A stretch of 64,000 nt of DNA, from positions 30,232 to 94,231 of the IMG/VR virus record IMGVR_UViG_3300021976_000006. The stretch is one strand, 5' to 3'. This DNA is from a virus. The notes under the pieces are model-generated. The model had not been told where the DNA came from. It ran no database searches and was given only the letters and a program-made list of their open reading frames with translations. This document shows, in pieces, positions 1,371-42,530 of this stretch (the first letter of the stretch is position 1; each line of letters starts with the position of its first letter). The position numbers and the translations under genes are program-made.

Positions 1371-4300
1371 TTATCTTTGAGATAATTTGTAAATTGAGTT
1401 TACAAAGTTAACAATAATTTTGGACATTACCAAACTTTTATAGCTAAATCTTACAATTAAATACTTATCTCTTAATTTAGCTAACTTATACCATGGTTTG
1501 TTATAATCAATTGCTAATGGATTAACTACTTTATCCACATAATAATTATTTTTTATATCATTCCAACTTTTAGAAAATAAAGGTTTAATTGATTGTTCTT
1601 TACTTCTGTCAAAAAACTTATTAATATTCCAATCTTTTTCTTTTCTAGTAAGATTAGTACCATTTAAAGTTATAACATCTGTACACTGTTGATCATTATA
1701 TAATAATACAGTATCAAAGAAATCATTAAGTCTTTGTTCACCTAAAAATGATTCAGCATTAATATTTAATGAATCTGTTACTTTAGTATATAAAGGATTC
1801 TCATTAAATACAGTTTCTATAATAAACTCAGTATCATAACCTTCCCCATTAGATTTTAATAAATCATTATCATAATTATATGTTAAGAAATCTGTATTAT
1901 GAGAAATATACAATCTTGGTATATAACCATGATAACTTATCCATTTCTTAGAAATAGGATCATAAGATACTGTAAAAGATTTATTCTCAAATACATCAGG
2001 ATTATTATAATCTAGTTTAACACCATTTCTATAAATATACCCATTAACAAATGTTAAAGTACCAGTAGTATCAATAAGTTCAAAGTCTTTCTTAGTAACT
2101 ATTAATCTTTTTAATTCAGGATCAAAAGTAGCAATAATACCTATATCATTAATAGGATTATCAAAACCATTCTCTAACTCTAATTGAGGAAATTGTTTAT
2201 AAATATCTAATTTAAAATATTCATTTAATCCTAGTATATTAATATCTTCTAATTGCTCATTAAATAAGAAACATTTATTCTTATGTCTGTCTACAAATAA
2301 GTATCCATATGGACTCTCTACAAGACTAAATTTAGAAGTAGTTCCACCATATCCACCATCAATAGATATTAGCTCTGTAGGCTCTATACTAAGGAATTCA
2401 CCAGTACCTACAACTATATTATCAGCATTTTCAGATTTAATAGTCTGATTAGATGCAAATACATCATATAGACTATCTCTAGTAATAGTATATAGTTTAT
2501 CTTGTCTAGTAAAGAATATAGTAATAGGTCCTCTATTAAGAGGTAAATCTCTATAATTATTAGCTCTTGATATTCTATAGTTATCTATTTTATCTTCTAA
2601 ACTCTGTTTGTCAGAATATATAATTCTAGTCGAGTATCTTATACCATCATTTAATAATCCAAAATCAGCTAGCTCTGTAGAATTAGCAAAATAGTATTTT
2701 ATATAATGATTATTATAAGGAATTTCTATCTTATAAAACTCTTTACGTAAATTAGCTGTAGTATAACTTTCAAAAGTACTGTCTATTAAATAAGATTTAG
2801 GAAAGTATTTCTCATCAAGAGTAGAACCTTCTCTACGCATTCTAATATTAATATCAGTTTCACACATAAATGAACCAAATGTGGTAGCTCCCCATTCAAA
2901 TACTTGTACTACTCCTCCTGGAGCAGAATCTTTAATATTAATAGCATTAATTGTTGAACTAATAGGAATAGCTTCTCCCCAAGTTTTCTTATAATGATGC
3001 ATATCAATATATGTATCACCATTTCTACAGAATACTTCCATAATACCAAATGAGAAATTTCTTGCAGCTCCTATTTCTACATATTCTAAATCTTGTACTT
3101 GACCATATAAACTGTCGTTATTATTTATAACAGATATATAATAAGCAGTGTCATAACAAGATTTATCTTGCCATCTTGGATCAACACCATCTGCAAATTT
3201 TAATCCATCCATAGTTATAGTAGCAGAATTAGATCCTGCTGGATAATCTAAGTCAGAATAGTAATCTGCTAATAATGTAGGATCGCCAATAGGTTTTATA
3301 TCTAATGTTGATAATACAGGTAATTGTAATAAAGCAGTATCTTGACTTTGCCTAAAGTTTAAAGCAATACCTTCACTAGTTCCTACGAAGTTATTATCAA
3401 TATATATAATTTTATCTATATCTCTACTATAAATTTCATCTTTAGGAACAGCTCTTTTTAAGTACGGTATAGCAGAGTTCATTATCTTTTGCTTTCTACC
3501 AGATTCATCAGATGCTGTATTATTATAATAATAAATATAATGTGCATGAGTAGGATCAGCAGCTCTTTTATAACCTATATAATTTATAAATCCTTTATCT
3601 AATCCACAAACTTTTAATTTATATCCTGATATATTAGCTTGTTTAAATTTAAAAGCTACTTCAGGAGAAATAAATTCAAATTGTCTAGCACCAGATTGAG
3701 TTCCACCACTAGCTTGTTGAGTCTGTTCTATAGGACTAAATGAATCATTTTGATCAGTACCTTGTAATAGACCTTTAGCTAATATATTTTTATTAGACTC
3801 ATTTCTAGGAGTCATAAATATTTTAATCTTTTTAATTAGATCTCCATATTCAGCAGGTATAACTATATTTTCAAAAGATAGTTGAATACACCATTTAGTT
3901 AATTGATAATCAGTAGCTGTATTAATAGCGTTTTCATCACCTCCAACTATTGTAGTATATAAAGGATGTAATATATCAGAAGGCATCTTATGATGTCTTA
4001 TATAAGATTTACCATTAGAATCTTGTTCTCCATTAATAGGATAACCAAATCCATCAGGATACACTTCATTACTTCTCCAATAAGATAAATATCCTGTATC
4101 AGTAGCAGTATTTCGATCTCTCCACCAAGTGTTACCATCAGGAGATATACCGGTATCCCATCCACCACCAGGAACATATACTCTTCCATACTCTCCTAGT
4201 TTTGTACCTAAACCTGGAATTACATCGGGTAATCTTCCTGGAATATGAAATACTTCAGTTTCTGTACCATCTTTTAATTCAAACCCTACTCCAAATGAAT

Positions 4301-5576
4301 ATACAGCATCTCTCATAAATGATCTATTGTCATCTATAAGATTGTTATTTCCTAAATTAACTAAATATGATGGACTAATAGAATGTTTTCTAGGAGCATC
4401 ATAAGGAACATCAAATGAATGTGGTGTATCAAAATCTATATCTACAGCAGCATTAATTATAGTATCATCTTCAAATACTACATTATCAGCTACATTATAT
4501 TGTACTGTAATATTATTAGCTAATGCTTGATAATTAATCTGAGAAGCTGCTAATTTAACATTACCTCTAATAAGTCTATTATCTTTCTGAGTAATAGCTT
4601 CTGAAGCATAATATTTAATAGTACCCACTATAACTTCATTTAGAGATATAGAATCATCTATCTCTCCTTCATTACCTGTATATATATAAGTATCTCTTGT
4701 AATAGGAATATTTTTTACTATTTTAATAGTATAAGTACCATCAATTAATGGTTTTATAATTAATAAATTATAGCTAGTAAAATTAGGATCTAATGTACTA
4801 TTAATTCCAAATTCTCTAAAATCTACTAGTATAGATTTGTTAGTAGGAGTTGGTATAACATCACCATCTACTAATCCAAAATCTTTATTAGTGTAAGAAT
4901 CTATAGGTCGACCATCAAAAAAATCATAATAATTCTCTGTAGCTATAGACATAGGTCTAGATATAGTTAATACAGATGTAGTAAATGTGTCTCCTAGATT
5001 ATAACTTACTCCTATATAATATTGACCACTAGTAATATTACCTCCATTATTTTGTACAATAGGAGATATAATAGGTCTAAGAGCTGTATCTCCAAGAGAT
5101 AATAATGCTATATCTAATCCTGTAGAATCTATATCTATATTAAGTAATCTATCATCATTTAATCCATCTACCCAATAGATAATACGTTGTTGCTTATAAT
5201 TAATTCTATAAGTACCTTTAATCTCATAATTATCTTGAAAATTTAATAGTAAAGAATCATATAATACAGTAGTTATATTTTTAGGAGGATTAATATAAAT
5301 GATCTTATTATAAGCTGTTTCTTCTTCTAAGTTTTTAATAAAAAGAACATACTCTTCTGTACCTAACCATATATAGCCAAGTATAGTAGTGTTTGTTTCT
5401 CCATTTGGTTTATAGTATAAACTAAAAGACTTCTCGTTGGTGCGAGAAGTTCTATCAGTTACTATATTATTAATTATAGTATTAAAAGCAAAAGAATATG
5501 AGTTTTTAGGTTGTTTAGTAGGATTATCTACTCTAACAAGTCCATTCTCAAATGTATTTACAGTTTTATTAGACAT
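1371..5576 (-). CDS. Tail stabilization/muzzle protein (crAss-like, P22 gp10-like)
   Basis: 1401 aa; motifs IYWVDGLN, FMRDAVYSFG, VFHIPGR, IRHHKMP, WISYHGYIP typical of the crAss-like stabilization protein; lies after the tail tubular gene. Confidence 0.8.
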   Translation of the reverse strand: MSNKTVNTFENGLVRVDNPTKQPKNSYSFAFNTIINNIVTDRTSRTNEKSFSLYYKPNGETNTTILGYIWLGTEEYVLFIKNLEEETAYNKIIYINPPKNITTVLYDSLLLNFQDNYEIKGTYRINYKQQRIIYWVDGLNDDRLLNIDIDSTGLDIALLSLGDTALRPIISPIVQNNGGNITSGQYYIGVSYNLGDTFTTSVLTISRPMSIATENYYDFFDGRPIDSYTNKDFGLVDGDVIPTPTNKSILVDFREFGINSTLDPNFTSYNLLIIKPLIDGTYTIKIVKNIPITRDTYIYTGNEGEIDDSISLNEVIVGTIKYYASEAITQKDNRLIRGNVKLAASQINYQALANNITVQYNVADNVVFEDDTIINAAVDIDFDTPHSFDVPYDAPRKHSISPSYLVNLGNNNLIDDNRSFMRDAVYSFGVGFELKDGTETEVFHIPGRLPDVIPGLGTKLGEYGRVYVPGGGWDTGISPDGNTWWRDRNTATDTGYLSYWRSNEVYPDGFGYPINGEQDSNGKSYIRHHKMPSDILHPLYTTIVGGDENAINTATDYQLTKWCIQLSFENIVIPAEYGDLIKKIKIFMTPRNESNKNILAKGLLQGTDQNDSFSPIEQTQQASGGTQSGARQFEFISPEVAFKFKQANISGYKLKVCGLDKGFINYIGYKRAADPTHAHYIYYYNNTASDESGRKQKIMNSAIPYLKRAVPKDEIYSRDIDKIIYIDNNFVGTSEGIALNFRQSQDTALLQLPVLSTLDIKPIGDPTLLADYYSDLDYPAGSNSATITMDGLKFADGVDPRWQDKSCYDTAYYISVINNNDSLYGQVQDLEYVEIGAARNFSFGIMEVFCRNGDTYIDMHHYKKTWGEAIPISSTINAINIKDSAPGGVVQVFEWGATTFGSFMCETDINIRMRREGSTLDEKYFPKSYLIDSTFESYTTANLRKEFYKIEIPYNNHYIKYYFANSTELADFGLLNDGIRYSTRIIYSDKQSLEDKIDNYRISRANNYRDLPLNRGPITIFFTRQDKLYTITRDSLYDVFASNQTIKSENADNIVVGTGEFLSIEPTELISIDGGYGGTTSKFSLVESPYGYLFVDRHKNKCFLFNEQLEDINILGLNEYFKLDIYKQFPQLELENGFDNPINDIGIIATFDPELKRLIVTKKDFELIDTTGTLTFVNGYIYRNGVKLDYNNPDVFENKSFTVSYDPISKKWISYHGYIPRLYISHNTDFLTYNYDNDLLKSNGEGYDTEFIIETVFNENPLYTKVTDSLNINAESFLGEQRLNDFFDTVLLYNDQQCTDVITLNGTNLTRKEKDWNINKFFDRSKEQSIKPLFSKSWNDIKNNYYVDKVVNPLAIDYNKPWYKLAKLRDKYLIVRFSYKSLVMSKIIVNFVNSIYKLSQR

Positions 5577-39259: not shown

Positions 39260-39629
39260 GGGGGTGCCTGGTTTTGACATTTAGTGATTATTATATTTTC
39301 AGCGGTTGGAAGCTTATATACAACCTTAAAATTTTAAGTAAACAATAACAGGCAAAACAATTAAATTGTCAGAAACAACTTTCAACGATATAATGCGTCA
39401 AGTATCTAACGTTGAATTAGAAATGGCTGCGTAAGCAATCATTAGATTAGGATATTAAGGGATTTTTAACCTTCAACTTAAAATTCCATCATTTTCCCAA
39501 TTTAGATTAGTGTAAATTGGATAACTTTTTCTAGGTTTTTTGAATAAAAATCTAGTTATTTTGTTAAAAGCTGTAACAAGAGATATAGTATTTTTTAGAT
39601 GGACAAGGGTTCGACTCCCTTCACCTCCA
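39260..39629 (+). ncRNA. ssrA: tmRNA
   Basis: 5' GGGGGTG pairs with 3' CACCTCC-A, including the G3.U70 Ala determinant. 5' ...TGGTTTTGAC and 3' GGAC-AAGGG-TTCGACT-CCCTT T-arm are present. Internal tag ORF 39351-39434 ends ...LEMAA*. Confidence 0.92.
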
Positions 39630-39808
39630 CGTAATACCCTGATTATCAATTAATTAGATAATATTCTACACGTTTGATTAGCGTTGGGATAAATAAATCG
39701 ATCTGCTTGTAGGCTCAAGGTAACCTTCAATAAATAATACAGGTGACACGTAGTCTTTGTACTCTCGGGAGTAACTGTATTATTATTTTAAACTTAAATT
39801 AAATAATT

Positions 39809-40285
39809 ATGAAAAAGAAATTAGAATTAGATGATCAAACTGCAAGATCAATATATAAAATAGCAGATATAGCAACTAAATTAGTATTAGAATCTAACTG
39901 GGGAAAAGAATTTTTTAGTGAAAAATTATCTGATAGAATTAAATCGTATGTAGATGTTTGTAAAGAATTATGTAGACCTATTTTAACAATAAAAGATTTT
40001 AAATTTTTACCTGAAAATCAAAGAGCTAAAGCTTTAGCAAATCACCAATGGGAAAATATTAGTGAATTATTTAACCAAGGATGGAAACCAGATTTTACAA
40101 ATATAAATCAAGCTAAATATTATGTTTGGTATGAAAGAAAATCTACTGGTTGGGTGGTGTGCTACTTCAGCGATCGGGGCTACTATTCTATCTGTGGGTC
40201 TGGTTTTTACTTTAAAGATTCAGAAACAGCTTTATATGTAGCTAATACATTTTTACCAATAATGACCATTATTTTAGAACCATAG
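39809..40285 (+). CDS. DGR target protein 1 (158 aa)
   Basis: Contains VR1 (40146-40211), matching TR1 except at adenines. Confidence 0.9.
   Translation: MKKKLELDDQTARSIYKIADIATKLVLESNWGKEFFSEKLSDRIKSYVDVCKELCRPILTIKDFKFLPENQRAKALANHQWENISELFNQGWKPDFTNINQAKYYVWYERKSTGWVVCYFSDRGYYSICGSGFYFKDSETALYVANTFLPIMTIILEP
40146..40211 (+). repeat. DGR variable repeat VR1
   Basis: 66-nt match to 40315-40380; 17 mismatches, 16 of them at template A. Confidence 0.93.
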
Positions 40286-40314
40286 GGTTACATATTTTAC
40301 TTATAGTTTTATAT

Positions 40315-40380
40315 CTAGTTAGGTAGTGAACTACTACAACAATCAGAACTACAATTCTAACTATGAGTCTAGTTTCTACT
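40315..40380 (+). repeat. DGR template repeat TR1
   Basis: Intergenic, AAC/AAT/TAC-rich copy of VR1 upstream of the RT. Confidence 0.93.
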
Positions 40381-40482
40381 CAATAATAAATACTAATATG
40401 AACCTCACCTCTTGGTGAAAAAAAGCGAAATCCAGAAAAGACATTAGTATATTAATAGAAAATGTCTTATGTTGAGTAAAAA

Positions 40483-41439
40483 ATGAAAAGAATAAATAAC
40501 CTCTATAATGATATTTGTAGTATTAATAATCTTATTCTAGCTGATAAAAAAGCTAGAATAGGAAAGTTAAAACAACTAGATATTATAAAACACGATAAAG
40601 CAAAAGGATGTAATATTTTAAAACTTCATAATATATTAATGGAGGAAAAATATAAAACATCTAAATATCATATATTTACTATATATGAAGGTAAGAAAAG
40701 AGAAATATATAAATTACCATATTATCCTGATAGAATAGTTCATCATGCTATTATGAATAAACTTGAATCTATTTTTGTATCTATATTTATTTCTAATACA
40801 TTTAATTGTATTAAAAATAGAGGAATAATGGGAGCTTATAAAGCTGTTAAAAAATCATTATTAGATATAGAAAATACTCAATATTGTTTAAAATTAGATA
40901 TAAGAAAATTTTATCCTAATATTAATAATAATATTTTAAAACTATTATTAAGAAAAAAGTTCAAAGATGAAAAATTACTAAAATTATTAGATGAAATTAT
41001 TAATAGTACAAAAGGACTACCAATTGGAAATTATTTAAGTCAATATTTTGCTAATTTTTATTTAACATATTTTGATCATTGGTTAAAAGAAATTAAAGGT
41101 GTTAAATATTATTTTAGATATTGTGATGATTTAGTTATATTATCTAGTAATAAGGAATATTTACATTTGCTATTTTTAGATATTCAAGATTATTTATCAA
41201 ATATATTAAAATTAGAAATTAAAAAAAACTATCAAATATTTCCAGTTAATATAAGAGGTATTGATTTTGTTGGTTATAAATTTTATCATAAATATATTTT
41301 ACTTAGAAAATCTATAAAGAAAAGATTCATTAAAGTTGCAAAATATAGTAAAGCTATACAATCATTAGCTGCTTATTTTGGATGGTTAAAATATTGTAAT
41401 AGCATAAACTTAAGAAATAAATATTTAAAAGATGAATAA
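40483..41439 (+). CDS. DGR-type reverse transcriptase
   Basis: YYPDRIVHHA, LKLDIRKFY, GLPIGNYLSQ (SQ signature of DGR RTs), YFRYCDD, GIDFVGY; 318 aa with no maturase, endonuclease or RNase H domain. Confidence 0.95.
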   Translation: MKRINNLYNDICSINNLILADKKARIGKLKQLDIIKHDKAKGCNILKLHNILMEEKYKTSKYHIFTIYEGKKREIYKLPYYPDRIVHHAIMNKLESIFVSIFISNTFNCIKNRGIMGAYKAVKKSLLDIENTQYCLKLDIRKFYPNINNNILKLLLRKKFKDEKLLKLLDEIINSTKGLPIGNYLSQYFANFYLTYFDHWLKEIKGVKYYFRYCDDLVILSSNKEYLHLLFLDIQDYLSNILKLEIKKNYQIFPVNIRGIDFVGYKFYHKYILLRKSIKKRFIKVAKYSKAIQSLAAYFGWLKYCNSINLRNKYLKDE

Positions 41440-41827
41440 GAAAGAAGCAGAAAAAGCTTTAAATAAGCTACAATTAGAAGTTAATAAACTCAGAGATATA
41501 ATAGATGCTCCTGAAAGTTTATTTGATATTACTACATATACAGAAGTATGTAAAAGATTAAATATTACAGAGAAGTCTTTAAGTGAATTTGAAACTCTTA
41601 AAGAGTATAGATACCATCAGATATTAAATATTCAGAAATTATTCAATGAAGATGCTGTAAATCCTAGATGGTATCCTTGGTTCTCTAGAACTGGTTCTGG
41701 TCTGGTTTTCTTCATTTCTTCCTGCTTCAGTGACTGCTACTATGGGCAGGTTGCTTACTTCAAAGATAAAAAAACCTCTGATTATATAGGTAAGACATTT
41801 AAATTTATCTATAACGATTTAAAATAA
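41432..41827 (+). CDS. DGR target protein 2 (131 aa), paralog of target 1
   Basis: Overlaps the RT stop; contains VR2; shares Y..VCK.L...F....HQ..NI..LFN....Y.W(F/Y)...YFKD..T..Y...TF..I with target 1. Confidence 0.9.
   Translation: MNKKEAEKALNKLQLEVNKLRDIIDAPESLFDITTYTEVCKRLNITEKSLSEFETLKEYRYHQILNIQKLFNEDAVNPRWYPWFSRTGSGLVFFISSCFSDCYYGQVAYFKDKKTSDYIGKTFKFIYNDLK
41689..41756 (+). repeat. DGR variable repeat VR2
   Basis: 68-nt match to 41846-41913; all 18 mismatches at template A. Confidence 0.93.
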
Positions 41828-41845
41828 TAATATAGGTCAATATTA

Positions 41846-41913
41846 AACTAGTTCTAGTCTAGTTTTCAACAATTCTAACTACAACAATGACAACTACAAT
41901 GAGCAAGTTACTT
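41846..41913 (+). repeat. DGR template repeat TR2
   Basis: Intergenic A-rich copy of VR2, distinct in sequence from TR1. Confidence 0.93.
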
Positions 41914-42041
41914 TTACTTTAACAATATTGATGTTGACCATAGCTCTTGCTAAAAAAATAAAATTAATAAAAAAGTCTTTAGTAATATTTATGAAAGAGA
42001 CTTATAAAAGTAAAATTAATATTAAAAACCTAAATTAAATA

Positions 42042-42530
42042 ATGAAGAAATTACTATACTTTGCTTATGGTAGCAATTTACTAAGTGCTAGATTAAGAGC
42101 TAGAATTGGTAGTGCTATCCATTTTAAGAACTATCGACTCAAAGACTATAAACTAACATTTGATTGTCAAGGATATGCTAATATACAAAGATCTATTGGA
42201 GATCATGTAGAAGGATGTTTATACAGTGTATCAGGTGAAGAATTAGCAATGTTAAATCAATATGAAGCTTTATATCATGCAGAGTTCTTTGAGTATGATT
42301 CTGATACTATAATTGCTATTTATATTGGTAATTATGAACCTGTTAAACACTCAAGAGTACATAATTTAGCTCCAATGAGAGCATACTTAGAAATTGTTAT
42401 GTTAGGTATGTTAGAGAAAGGATTAAAGCTATCTCATGACAAAGTTAAAAGGATTTATGATTCATTACCATTAGAAAGAGTTCATATTAAGTCTAACAGA
42501 AAAGCTAAACGCTTTAGAAAAAGAAAATAA
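42042..42530 (+). CDS. Gamma-glutamylcyclotransferase (AIG2/GGCT-like)
   Basis: YFAYGSNL...ANI...VEGCLY...LNQYE. Confidence 0.85.
   Translation: MKKLLYFAYGSNLLSARLRARIGSAIHFKNYRLKDYKLTFDCQGYANIQRSIGDHVEGCLYSVSGEELAMLNQYEALYHAEFFEYDSDTIIAIYIGNYEPVKHSRVHNLAPMRAYLEIVMLGMLEKGLKLSHDKVKRIYDSLPLERVHIKSNRKAKRFRKRK

Follow-up and report, generated by a model that had tools for sequence, protein, structure and literature searches.

The window analysed here, 64,000 nucleotides (nt) of the 94,231-bp record IMGVR_UViG_3300021976_000006, which represents a complete phage, contains a locus that we identify from its sequence as a diversity-generating retroelement (DGR) with two template/target cassettes and one reverse transcriptase (RT). 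In both cassettes, the template repeat (TR) lies within the same scaffold of four RNA helices, H1 to H4. We consider it likely, with a probability of roughly 80%, that this is an Avd-less DGR in which each unit of about 180-200 nt is a complete, cis-acting DGR RNA, with H1 acting as the stop, H3 as the RT-binding element and H4 as the priming element. This reading is directly supported by the sequence pairings, by the covariation of H1 to H3 in homologs, by the homology of the scaffold to the motifs RT-18 and RT-17, and by differences between variable repeat (VR) and TR that are specific to adenines.

The DGR occupies positions 39809-42015 of the window, with every element on the + strand, in the order target 1 with VR1, unit 1, RT, target 2 with VR2, unit 2. 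Target gene 1 (39809-40285, 158 aa, taken from the list of open reading frames, ORFs) contains VR1 (40146-40211) close to its 3' end, and TR1 (40315-40380) is the corresponding template repeat; their ungapped match of 66 nt shows 17 mismatches, 16 of which are at TR adenines. Target gene 2 (41432-41827, 131 aa) holds VR2 (41689-41756) near its 3' end, and all 18 mismatches between VR2 and TR2 (41846-41913) are at TR adenines. The RT gene (40483-41439, 318 aa) encodes the motifs LPIGNYLSQ, of the form IGxxxSQ, and YCDD, and its product matches Pfam RVT_1 (1.7e-14) and PHROG 1423 (7e-99). Its top match in the PDB is 8ub7_A, the reverse-transcriptase chain of entries 8ub7-8ube, over the full length and with an E-value of 7.5e-36; we take this chain to be bRT of the BPP-1 ribonucleoprotein. 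As the VR/TR mismatches are A-specific, with the VRs located in target ORFs, and as the RT exhibits both motifs, the locus is assigned to the DGRs, the RT being placed by its motifs and by the structure match.

A sequence-only reading of this stretch had proposed four pairings common to both units, and all four are found where it had placed them when the sequence is read directly. In unit 1, H1 is formed by GGTTACATATT (40286-40296), located directly after the stop codon of target gene 1, and AATATGAACC (40395-40404), which ends in a conserved ..ACC adjoining hairpin 2; one A is bulged, and the duplex is weak (-6.9 kcal/mol). H2 (TCACC-TCTT-GGTGA, 40405-40418) corresponds to positions 1-16 of Rfam RT-18 and is directly followed by an A-run (40419-40424) and by a linker of about 13 nt (40425-40437), which is unpaired in the Rfam and RNAalifold consensus structures. 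H3 (40438-40468) is an 8-bp stem between AAGACATT (40438-40445) and AATGTCTT (40461-40468). The 15-nt AGTA...GAA loop previously described for H3 is present, but it is not a single loop: it comprises an AGUA/GAA internal loop, a 2-bp inner stem (TA/TA) and a UUAA tetraloop. We classify the internal loop as sarcin-ricin-type because a 2026 JAR3D survey assigns such a loop to RT-17 and RT-18, together with RT-14, RT-16, RT-19 and RT-10. H4 pairs TTT-C-TACTCAATA at the 3' end of TR1 (40373-40385, with the core TACTCAATA at 40377-40385) with the tail TGTTGAGTA-A-AAA (40470-40482, with the core TGTTGAGTA at 40470-40478), whose last base directly precedes the RT start codon; its duplex energy is -8.3 to -9.3 kcal/mol. 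A distal extension of H4 (TCAATA/TGTTGA) is present in this phage.

In unit 2, H1 pairs GGTCAATATTAA (41835-41846, core GGTCAATATT at 41835-41844) with TTGATGTTGACC (41928-41939, core GATGTTGACC at 41930-41939), and this duplex, at -13.1 kcal/mol, ranks first among 68 alternative partners. H2 (TAGC-TCTT-GCTA, 41941-41952) is followed by an A-run at 41953-41958, and H3 (41973-42003) pairs AAGTCTTT (41973-41980) with AGAGACTT (41996-42003) around an AGUA...GAA loop with the inner stem AT/AT. The strands of H4 lie within 41908-41920 and 42005-42015 and can pair in two registers of nearly equal energy: TTACTTTTA (41908-41916) with TAAAAGTAA (42005-42013), as first proposed (-5.5 kcal/mol), or TTTTACTTT (41912-41920) with AAAGTAAAA (42007-42015; -5.1 kcal/mol).

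The scaffold was then compared among homologs in a sample of 80 viral and 80 genome loci, the latter mostly from Bacteroidota, whose RTs are 49-67% identical to that of the window. Our own covariance model, R1, which spans the H1 3' strand to the tail and has window unit 2 in its seed, detects a single scaffold immediately 5' of the RT in all 80 viral loci and in 79 of the 80 genome loci, the one missed locus being without upstream sequence. TR/VR pairs were located in most loci, and 37 distinct units were aligned (alignment A2). On this alignment, the four-helix structure has 84.8% of cells paired, compared with 70.6% in shuffles and 37-44% when the strands are slid, and its covariation score is 0.471 vs 0.200, with 0/500 shuffles as high. 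Without any guidance, RNAalifold recovers H2, H3, the inner stem and, of H1, the distal part; compensatory changes are seen in all 18 of the predicted pairs.

With regard to the individual helices, H1 is paired in 88% of cells, and 10 of its 13 pairs are changed on both sides. The homologs carry GGTTGTATGCTGC-type strands at the 5' position of H1, which pair with the strand before hairpin 2 through many compensatory changes, while the GG/CC pairs adjoining hairpin 2 are conserved. H2 is paired in 92% of cells, with 4/5 pairs changed on both sides and invariant adenines in the A-run. In H3, 7/8 outer pairs and both inner pairs are changed on both sides; taken together, H2, H3 and the inner stem are paired in 85-92% of cells, with many double changes. 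An alignment-free swap test, in which the duplex energy of each locus's own pair of windows is compared with that obtained using windows from other loci (n=68), gives -15.35 kcal/mol for cognate and -9.48 kcal/mol for swapped H1 strands (p<=1e-4), and the cognate partner ranks within the top 10% in 54/68 loci. Because of the swap test and the covariation on A2, H1 is established. The covariation that the sequence-only reading had called for is therefore strong for H1, H2 and H3, and it is modest for H4. In all, more than 150 homologous loci lend strong support to H1, H2 and H3. Within the sample, one subfamily (loci L047-L082 and L112-L162, largely gut Bacteroidales) has hairpin 2 replaced by a three-way junction upstream of the RT, consisting of a GCC...GGC closing stem, two inserted hairpins and then the A-run; R1 matches about 135 nt there, at 31-44 bits.

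H4 pairs the 3' end of the TR with the tail that follows H3, and this tail is the only conserved partner found for the TR 3' end. In the swap test, cognate H4 strands reach -7.33 kcal/mol and swapped strands -6.74 kcal/mol (p=0.004, n=68), whereas the 5' flank and the tail, tested against each other as a control, give a null result (p=0.41). The tests of H4 have little variation to use because most loci share the conserved pair CCT-A-TGC/GCA-A-AGG. Compensatory variants are nevertheless present in the core (TGC/GCA, TGG/CCA, TGT/ACA and TAC/GTA) and in the distal extensions (TATT/AATA, TGTA/TACA and TTATT/AATAA), and the central mismatch is turned into A-U or C-G in some clades. H4 also lies at the limit of A-specific transfer. 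In 32/37 units, the first non-A mismatch between TR and VR is located 0-11 nt into the H4 5' strand or just past it, and upstream of this mismatch at least 45 nt differ at adenines only. In unit 1, the last A-mismatch, A40371, is 2 nt 5' of the H4 strand, and the sole non-A mismatch, C40376, is inside H4.

The BPP-1 DGR, whose priming has been studied by Naorem et al. 2017 (PMC5703328) and Handa et al. 2018 (PMC6182149), offers a second line of evidence. Its template:primer duplex pairs TR117-129 with Sp47-56, with A56 as the priming nucleotide and G117 as the first template base (Handa et al., bioRxiv 10.1101/2023.10.23.563531). The better match of this spacer strand to the VR was noted earlier and was proposed to set the direction of homing (Naorem et al. 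2017, PMC5703328). We recovered this property in BPP-1 as a control (locus L083), where the Sp47-56 duplex reaches -16.7 kcal/mol with the VR 3' end and -10.1 kcal/mol with the TR. The H4 tail behaves in the same way: it is more complementary to the 3' end of the VR, the IMH, than to that of the TR, the IMH*, in 23/29 distinct loci, with 6.4 of 8 Watson-Crick pairs compared with 5.1 (Wilcoxon p=3e-4), and in unit 1, where AGTAAAAA in the tail exactly complements TTTTTACT in VR1 and TR1 reads TTTCTACT, but not in unit 2. In the main clade (L003-L163), the VR 3' end is near-invariant (..CGCCTTTGC) and exactly complements the tail GCAAAGG, whereas the TR varies at the same site (CTATGC, CTAAGC, AATTGC, CTCTGC, CTGAGC), with non-A differences among these forms. 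By analogy, the H4 tail shows the signature of the proven BPP-1 primer strand. On the basis of the transfer limit, of the preference of the tail for the VR and of the pairing of the unit 2 tail away from a start codon, we infer that H4 is the template:primer duplex. A local primer hairpin of the BPP-1 kind, in which the TR 3' end would pair with the stretch before the H1 3' strand, was considered and rejected, as there is neither room nor a conserved partner for it; when the TR 3' end is tested against the region before hairpin 2, the swap test is null (p=0.22, after p=0.047 in a first run).

Several observations weigh against this interpretation of the scaffold. Folded as a single sequence, neither unit reaches significant stability (unit 1, z = -1.5; unit 2, z = -1.9). 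As the loci are related by phylogeny, the p-values given above overstate their independence. The covariation of H4 is modest: on a MAFFT alignment, 70.9% of its cells are paired compared with 67.7% in shuffles, of which 6/500 score as high, the slid strands giving 21-40%. The boundary of A-mismatches is blurred by a 3' end that VR and TR have in common by ancestry, and in the VR the bases at this end (CGCCTTTGC) are invariant, perhaps for reasons of protein coding. The H4 tail (AAAGCAAAGG) adjoins the RT start codon in nearly all loci, and translation initiation could account for part of its conservation. The tail of unit 2 has no greater complementarity to VR2 than to TR2, and H4 can form in two registers there. 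Finally, the search for Avd, a poorly conserved protein, used one Pfam model, PF05635, which gave no match in the complete 94-kb phage or in 5 related records.

Some of these points would be explained if only H2 and H3 were real and H4, perhaps H1 as well, were functionless chance complementarity in an AT-rich phage. The AT-rich sequence, with 172 inverted repeats in 2.3 kb, the weak z-scores, the small excess of H4 over shuffles on the MAFFT alignment and the low stability of H1 in unit 1 are all in keeping with this explanation. We nonetheless regard it as quite unlikely, as H1 covaries overwhelmingly in 68 distinct loci and is predicted blind by RNAalifold, and as most loci have H4 in one and the same register, with several types of compensatory change, while the control pairings are null. 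Chance would also have had to place H4 where the A-only identity of TR and VR ends on its 3' side, and to give its tail the same preference for the VR as the BPP-1 primer strand. With regard to the folds themselves, the minimum free energy structure contains only H4 in unit 1 and only H1 in unit 2 of the two long-range helices, because H1 and H4 cross and cannot coexist in a nested fold.

The position of the tail raises another explanation, namely that it owes its conservation to a role in initiating translation of the RT. Pairing with the TR would then be either a translational switch that occludes RT translation or incidental, and priming would take place elsewhere. In nearly all loci, 0-6 nt separate the end of the tail from the RT ATG, AAAGCAAAGG resembles a Shine-Dalgarno site, and the second unit of a related phage contig, described below, is also directly followed by an ORF. 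In the window, however, the unit 2 tail pairs although it is at least 26 nt upstream of the next start codon (42042), so the RT ribosome site alone does not account for the pairing of H4. Moreover, the clade is mostly composed of Bacteroidota, which make little use of Shine-Dalgarno pairing; the lack of room and of a conserved partner between TR and H1 3' strand leaves no place for a BPP-1-like primer strand; and a ribosome site leaves the preference of the tail for the VR unexplained. This explanation appears unlikely to us as an alternative to priming, and roles of the tail in translation and in priming are compatible with each other.

The two units of the window differ in how widely they are shared. 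Among 161 loci, a second scaffold is present only in the window and in L037 (IMGVR_UViG_3300020050_012416), an AT-rich phage contig, and is missing from the other 159. L037 shows the same twin layout (target 1, unit 1, RT, target 2, unit 2) at 2287-4510, and its RT is 61% identical to that of the window. Its unit 2, at L037:4413-4507, scores 39 bits and follows the RT and the second target gene; an ORF starts directly after this unit at L037:4508. In alignment A4, this unit is closer to window unit 2 than to either unit 1, which identifies the two as orthologous. Between them, three H1 pairs are changed on both sides and two go from wobble to Watson-Crick; H3 differs by one double change and H2 in its loop. 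The register of H4 at 41912-41920/42007-42015 in the window is the homolog of that in L037 unit 2 (TACTTTAA/TTAAAGTA); we prefer it, and the H4 pairing first proposed for unit 2 stands, with a register that is probably to be shifted by a few bases. The preferred register places A41910, which is G in VR2, within the copied region, which fits an initiation of cDNA synthesis 3' of A41910.

These comparisons bear on the possibility that the RT uses unit 1 only, unit 2 being a duplicate that is silent or in decay. Such a duplicate could account for a score below the Rfam gathering threshold (27.9 bits, see below), for the absence of a second unit from 159/161 related loci and for a tail that matches VR2 no better than TR2. 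It would not be expected to keep 18/18 VR2/TR2 differences at TR adenines and four intact helices, nor to retain its helices in L037 through compensatory changes, and we consider it very unlikely. R1 gives unit 2 53.1 bits (E 4.7e-8), unit 2 itself being in the seed. The compensatory changes in L037 and the A-only VR2/TR2 differences argue, at the sequence level, that unit 2 has been kept functional over a long time. The earlier proposals that TR2 is still under selection and that the duplicate delimits a portable template RNA of about 180-190 nt are thus supported, with 180-200 nt per unit in our analysis. DGRs with two TRs have been reported previously.

Half of the scaffold was already known as a family: on the basis of model scores, H2 and H3 are the Rfam RT-18/RT-17 motif. 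Unit 1 matches RT-18 (RF03021) with 44.6 bits at 40406-40482, above the gathering threshold of 41.3, and unit 2 with 27.9 bits at 41941-42013, below it. For RT-17 (RF03020), the scores are 33.3 bits for unit 1 and 22.2 bits for unit 2, which is again below gathering. RT-14 gives a sub-threshold match to unit 1 (32.7 bits), with non-canonical pairs in the 5' helix, and no match to unit 2. As in RT-18 sites, unit 1 lies directly upstream of an RT gene; unit 2, in contrast, follows both the RT and target gene 2. Both units share with RT-18 and RT-17 a hairpin with a CNCUUG-type loop, the AAAA, a linker, the UAGUA/UGGUA...GAAA stem and an A-rich 3' tail (AAAGCA...). The Rfam models differ from the window units in that they stop at the 5' side of hairpin 2 and therefore include neither H1 nor the H4 partner of the tail, and RT-18 has an extra 4-bp stem around H3 that the window units do not form. 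The motifs RT-1 to RT-19 were found beside RT genes, and only RT-10 was tied to a DGR, that of BPP-1, whereas RT-18 and RT-17 were given neither a DGR assignment nor a function (Weinberg et al. 2017, PMC5737381). RT-10 was rejected as the identity of the scaffold, since an Rfam scan of the window gave no match to it.

The arrangement of the elements resembles that of the BPP-1 DGR RNA, which consists of the avd 3' end, the TR and a 140-nt spacer and has been solved by cryo-EM in the bRT-Avd:RNA complex (10.1101/2023.10.23.563531, as are the following BPP-1 features). In BPP-1, the strand Sp59-70 pairs with an upstream strand in avd to form the cPRT Stop duplex and is followed by a 2-bp tetraloop hairpin; A80 and A81 dock in G:C pairs of the stop duplex; a single-stranded Thumb Ring comes next, and then a bRT-binding stem-loop with internal loops. 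H1 likewise encloses the TR by pairing an upstream strand with a spacer strand, here with GG/CC next to the hairpin, and H2 with its invariant A-run, in both units, corresponds to the stop hairpin and its A-minor adenosines. The single-stranded linker of about 13 nt corresponds by position to the Thumb Ring, whose role it may share, and H3, whose sarcin-ricin-type internal loop has a counterpart in BPP-1, would by analogy be the RT-binding stem-loop. In both systems, the TR 3' end pairs with a spacer strand where copying begins, and that strand favours the VR over the TR. The homology of the window RT to 8ub7_A extends this likeness to the protein.

Other features differ from BPP-1. The putative primer strand occupies the 3' end of the spacer, beyond the RT-binding hairpin, instead of lying 2 nt before the stop strand, so H4 crosses H1 (columns 35-48/181-193 vs 161-168/278-285 of A2) and the two form a pseudoknot, whereas the long-range helices of BPP-1 are nested. 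The Avd-binding stem-loop of BPP-1, Sp3-33, lies between the TR117-129 and Sp47-56 strands; neither it nor, with PF05635, an avd gene was found here, and as the stretch from TR/H4 to the H1 3' strand measures just 9-14 nt in the window, compared with 8-25 variable nt in homologs, there is no room for an Avd-binding hairpin. The spacer measures about 100 nt compared with 140 nt, the upstream H1 strand follows the target stop codon instead of lying inside avd, two complete units are present per RT, and the BPP-1 motif RT-10 has no counterpart at the sequence level. The Rfam status of half of the scaffold, the published overall logic of the DGR RNA and the H1/H4 pseudoknot had all escaped the sequence-only reading.

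By analogy with BPP-1, the scaffold may work as follows. H1 would clamp the sequence that follows the target stop codon to the ..ACC strand located 3' of the TR, closing the TR as a loop, and would be the roadblock that ends cDNA synthesis. The A-run after H2 would be the counterpart of the BPP-1 adenosines that dock in the minor groove of the two terminal G:C pairs, and the linker and H3 would act as thumb-ring and RT-binding elements. H4 would pair the non-transferred 3' end of the TR with the last 9-13 nt or so of the unit, thereby presenting the first template base to the RT and supplying the priming nucleotide. One RT would serve both units, one in cis and one downstream. The sequence-only reading had regarded the scaffold as the site of RT binding and priming; the match to RT-18/RT-17, the BPP-1 order of elements and the homology of the RT to bRT argue for this, and we infer the roles of the elements, including priming by H4, and the sharing of a single RT.

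Avd is present in about 74% of DGRs and is not universal. Putative stop duplexes were described in 207/278 Avd-containing DGRs, in a survey that covered Avd-containing DGRs only (10.1101/2023.10.23.563531). Accessory-free TR-RT architectures and an Avd-less lineage, for which a distinct mechanism was suggested, were reported by Wu et al. 2018 (PMC5758913). Our locus resembles their architecture A1 (TR-RT) and 'Lineage 3' in its target-TR-RT order, in the lack of an accessory gene and in the dominance of Bacteroidota among its relatives, a likeness of gene architecture rather than of tree position, and it is unusual among these DGRs in having a second target-TR unit downstream of the RT. That study described architectures, not RNA, and no description of an Avd-less DGR RNA structure or of the pseudoknot was found in the literature that we searched, which does not prove that none has been published. 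The DGR RNA is thus of a known kind, and it is a new form of it in topology, with a putative relocated primer strand, a pseudoknot and no Avd module, and in its natural duplication, which is rare.

A more general proposal has, in our view, about even odds: Avd-less DGRs of the Bacteroidota type may use a circularly permuted DGR RNA, in which the primer strand has moved from its BPP-1 position, just before the stop strand, to the extreme 3' end of the spacer, next to the RT start codon, so that the template:primer duplex forms a pseudoknot with the stop duplex. The result would be a minimal, duplicable cassette of about 200 nt of RNA and one protein, of which a single RT could drive two copies. 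If this holds, cleavage of the RNA at the priming site, should it occur, would mean that priming at the same time separates the template from the RT message.

The RNA control of DGR reverse transcription has been worked out for BPP-1 alone, an element that requires Avd, and the window with its approximately 160 relatives provides a comparative model for the Avd-less class. These relatives would share the stop, thumb-ring and RT-binding modules and lack the Avd module, with the priming helix relocated. The natural duplicate indicates that a unit of about 200 nt is self-contained, and the long retention of the helices of unit 2 away from an RT start separates the constraints of RNA structure from those of translation. 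A compact, single-protein, multi-template DGR may also be of interest for reprogrammed targeted mutagenesis in laboratory bacteria.

With regard to the targets, both proteins are very small (158 and 131 aa) and exhibit no Pfam domain, and target 1 matches one uncharacterised PHROG only. A search of viral contigs for relatives of target protein 2 found none and gave no further phages with twin units. When TR1 is read in the target frame (40315-40331 vs 40146-40162), it has TAG where VR1 has TGG, and many of the differences of VR1 from TR1, as judged by eye, are A-to-G in an AG context. A promoter and terminator scan around both units found promoter-like sites at chance level and no terminator on the + strand, which is compatible with co-transcription. 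Directly upstream of the DGR, the phage encodes a tmRNA (39260-39632, + strand; Rfam tmRNA 58.7 bits, E 2e-21), for which ARAGORN predicts the 27-residue tag GKTIKLSETTFNDIMRQVSNVELEMAA. The gene following unit 2 (42042-42530, + strand), outside the DGR, is gamma-glutamyl cyclotransferase-like (AIG2/GGACT, Pfam 3e-7, PHROG 2520).

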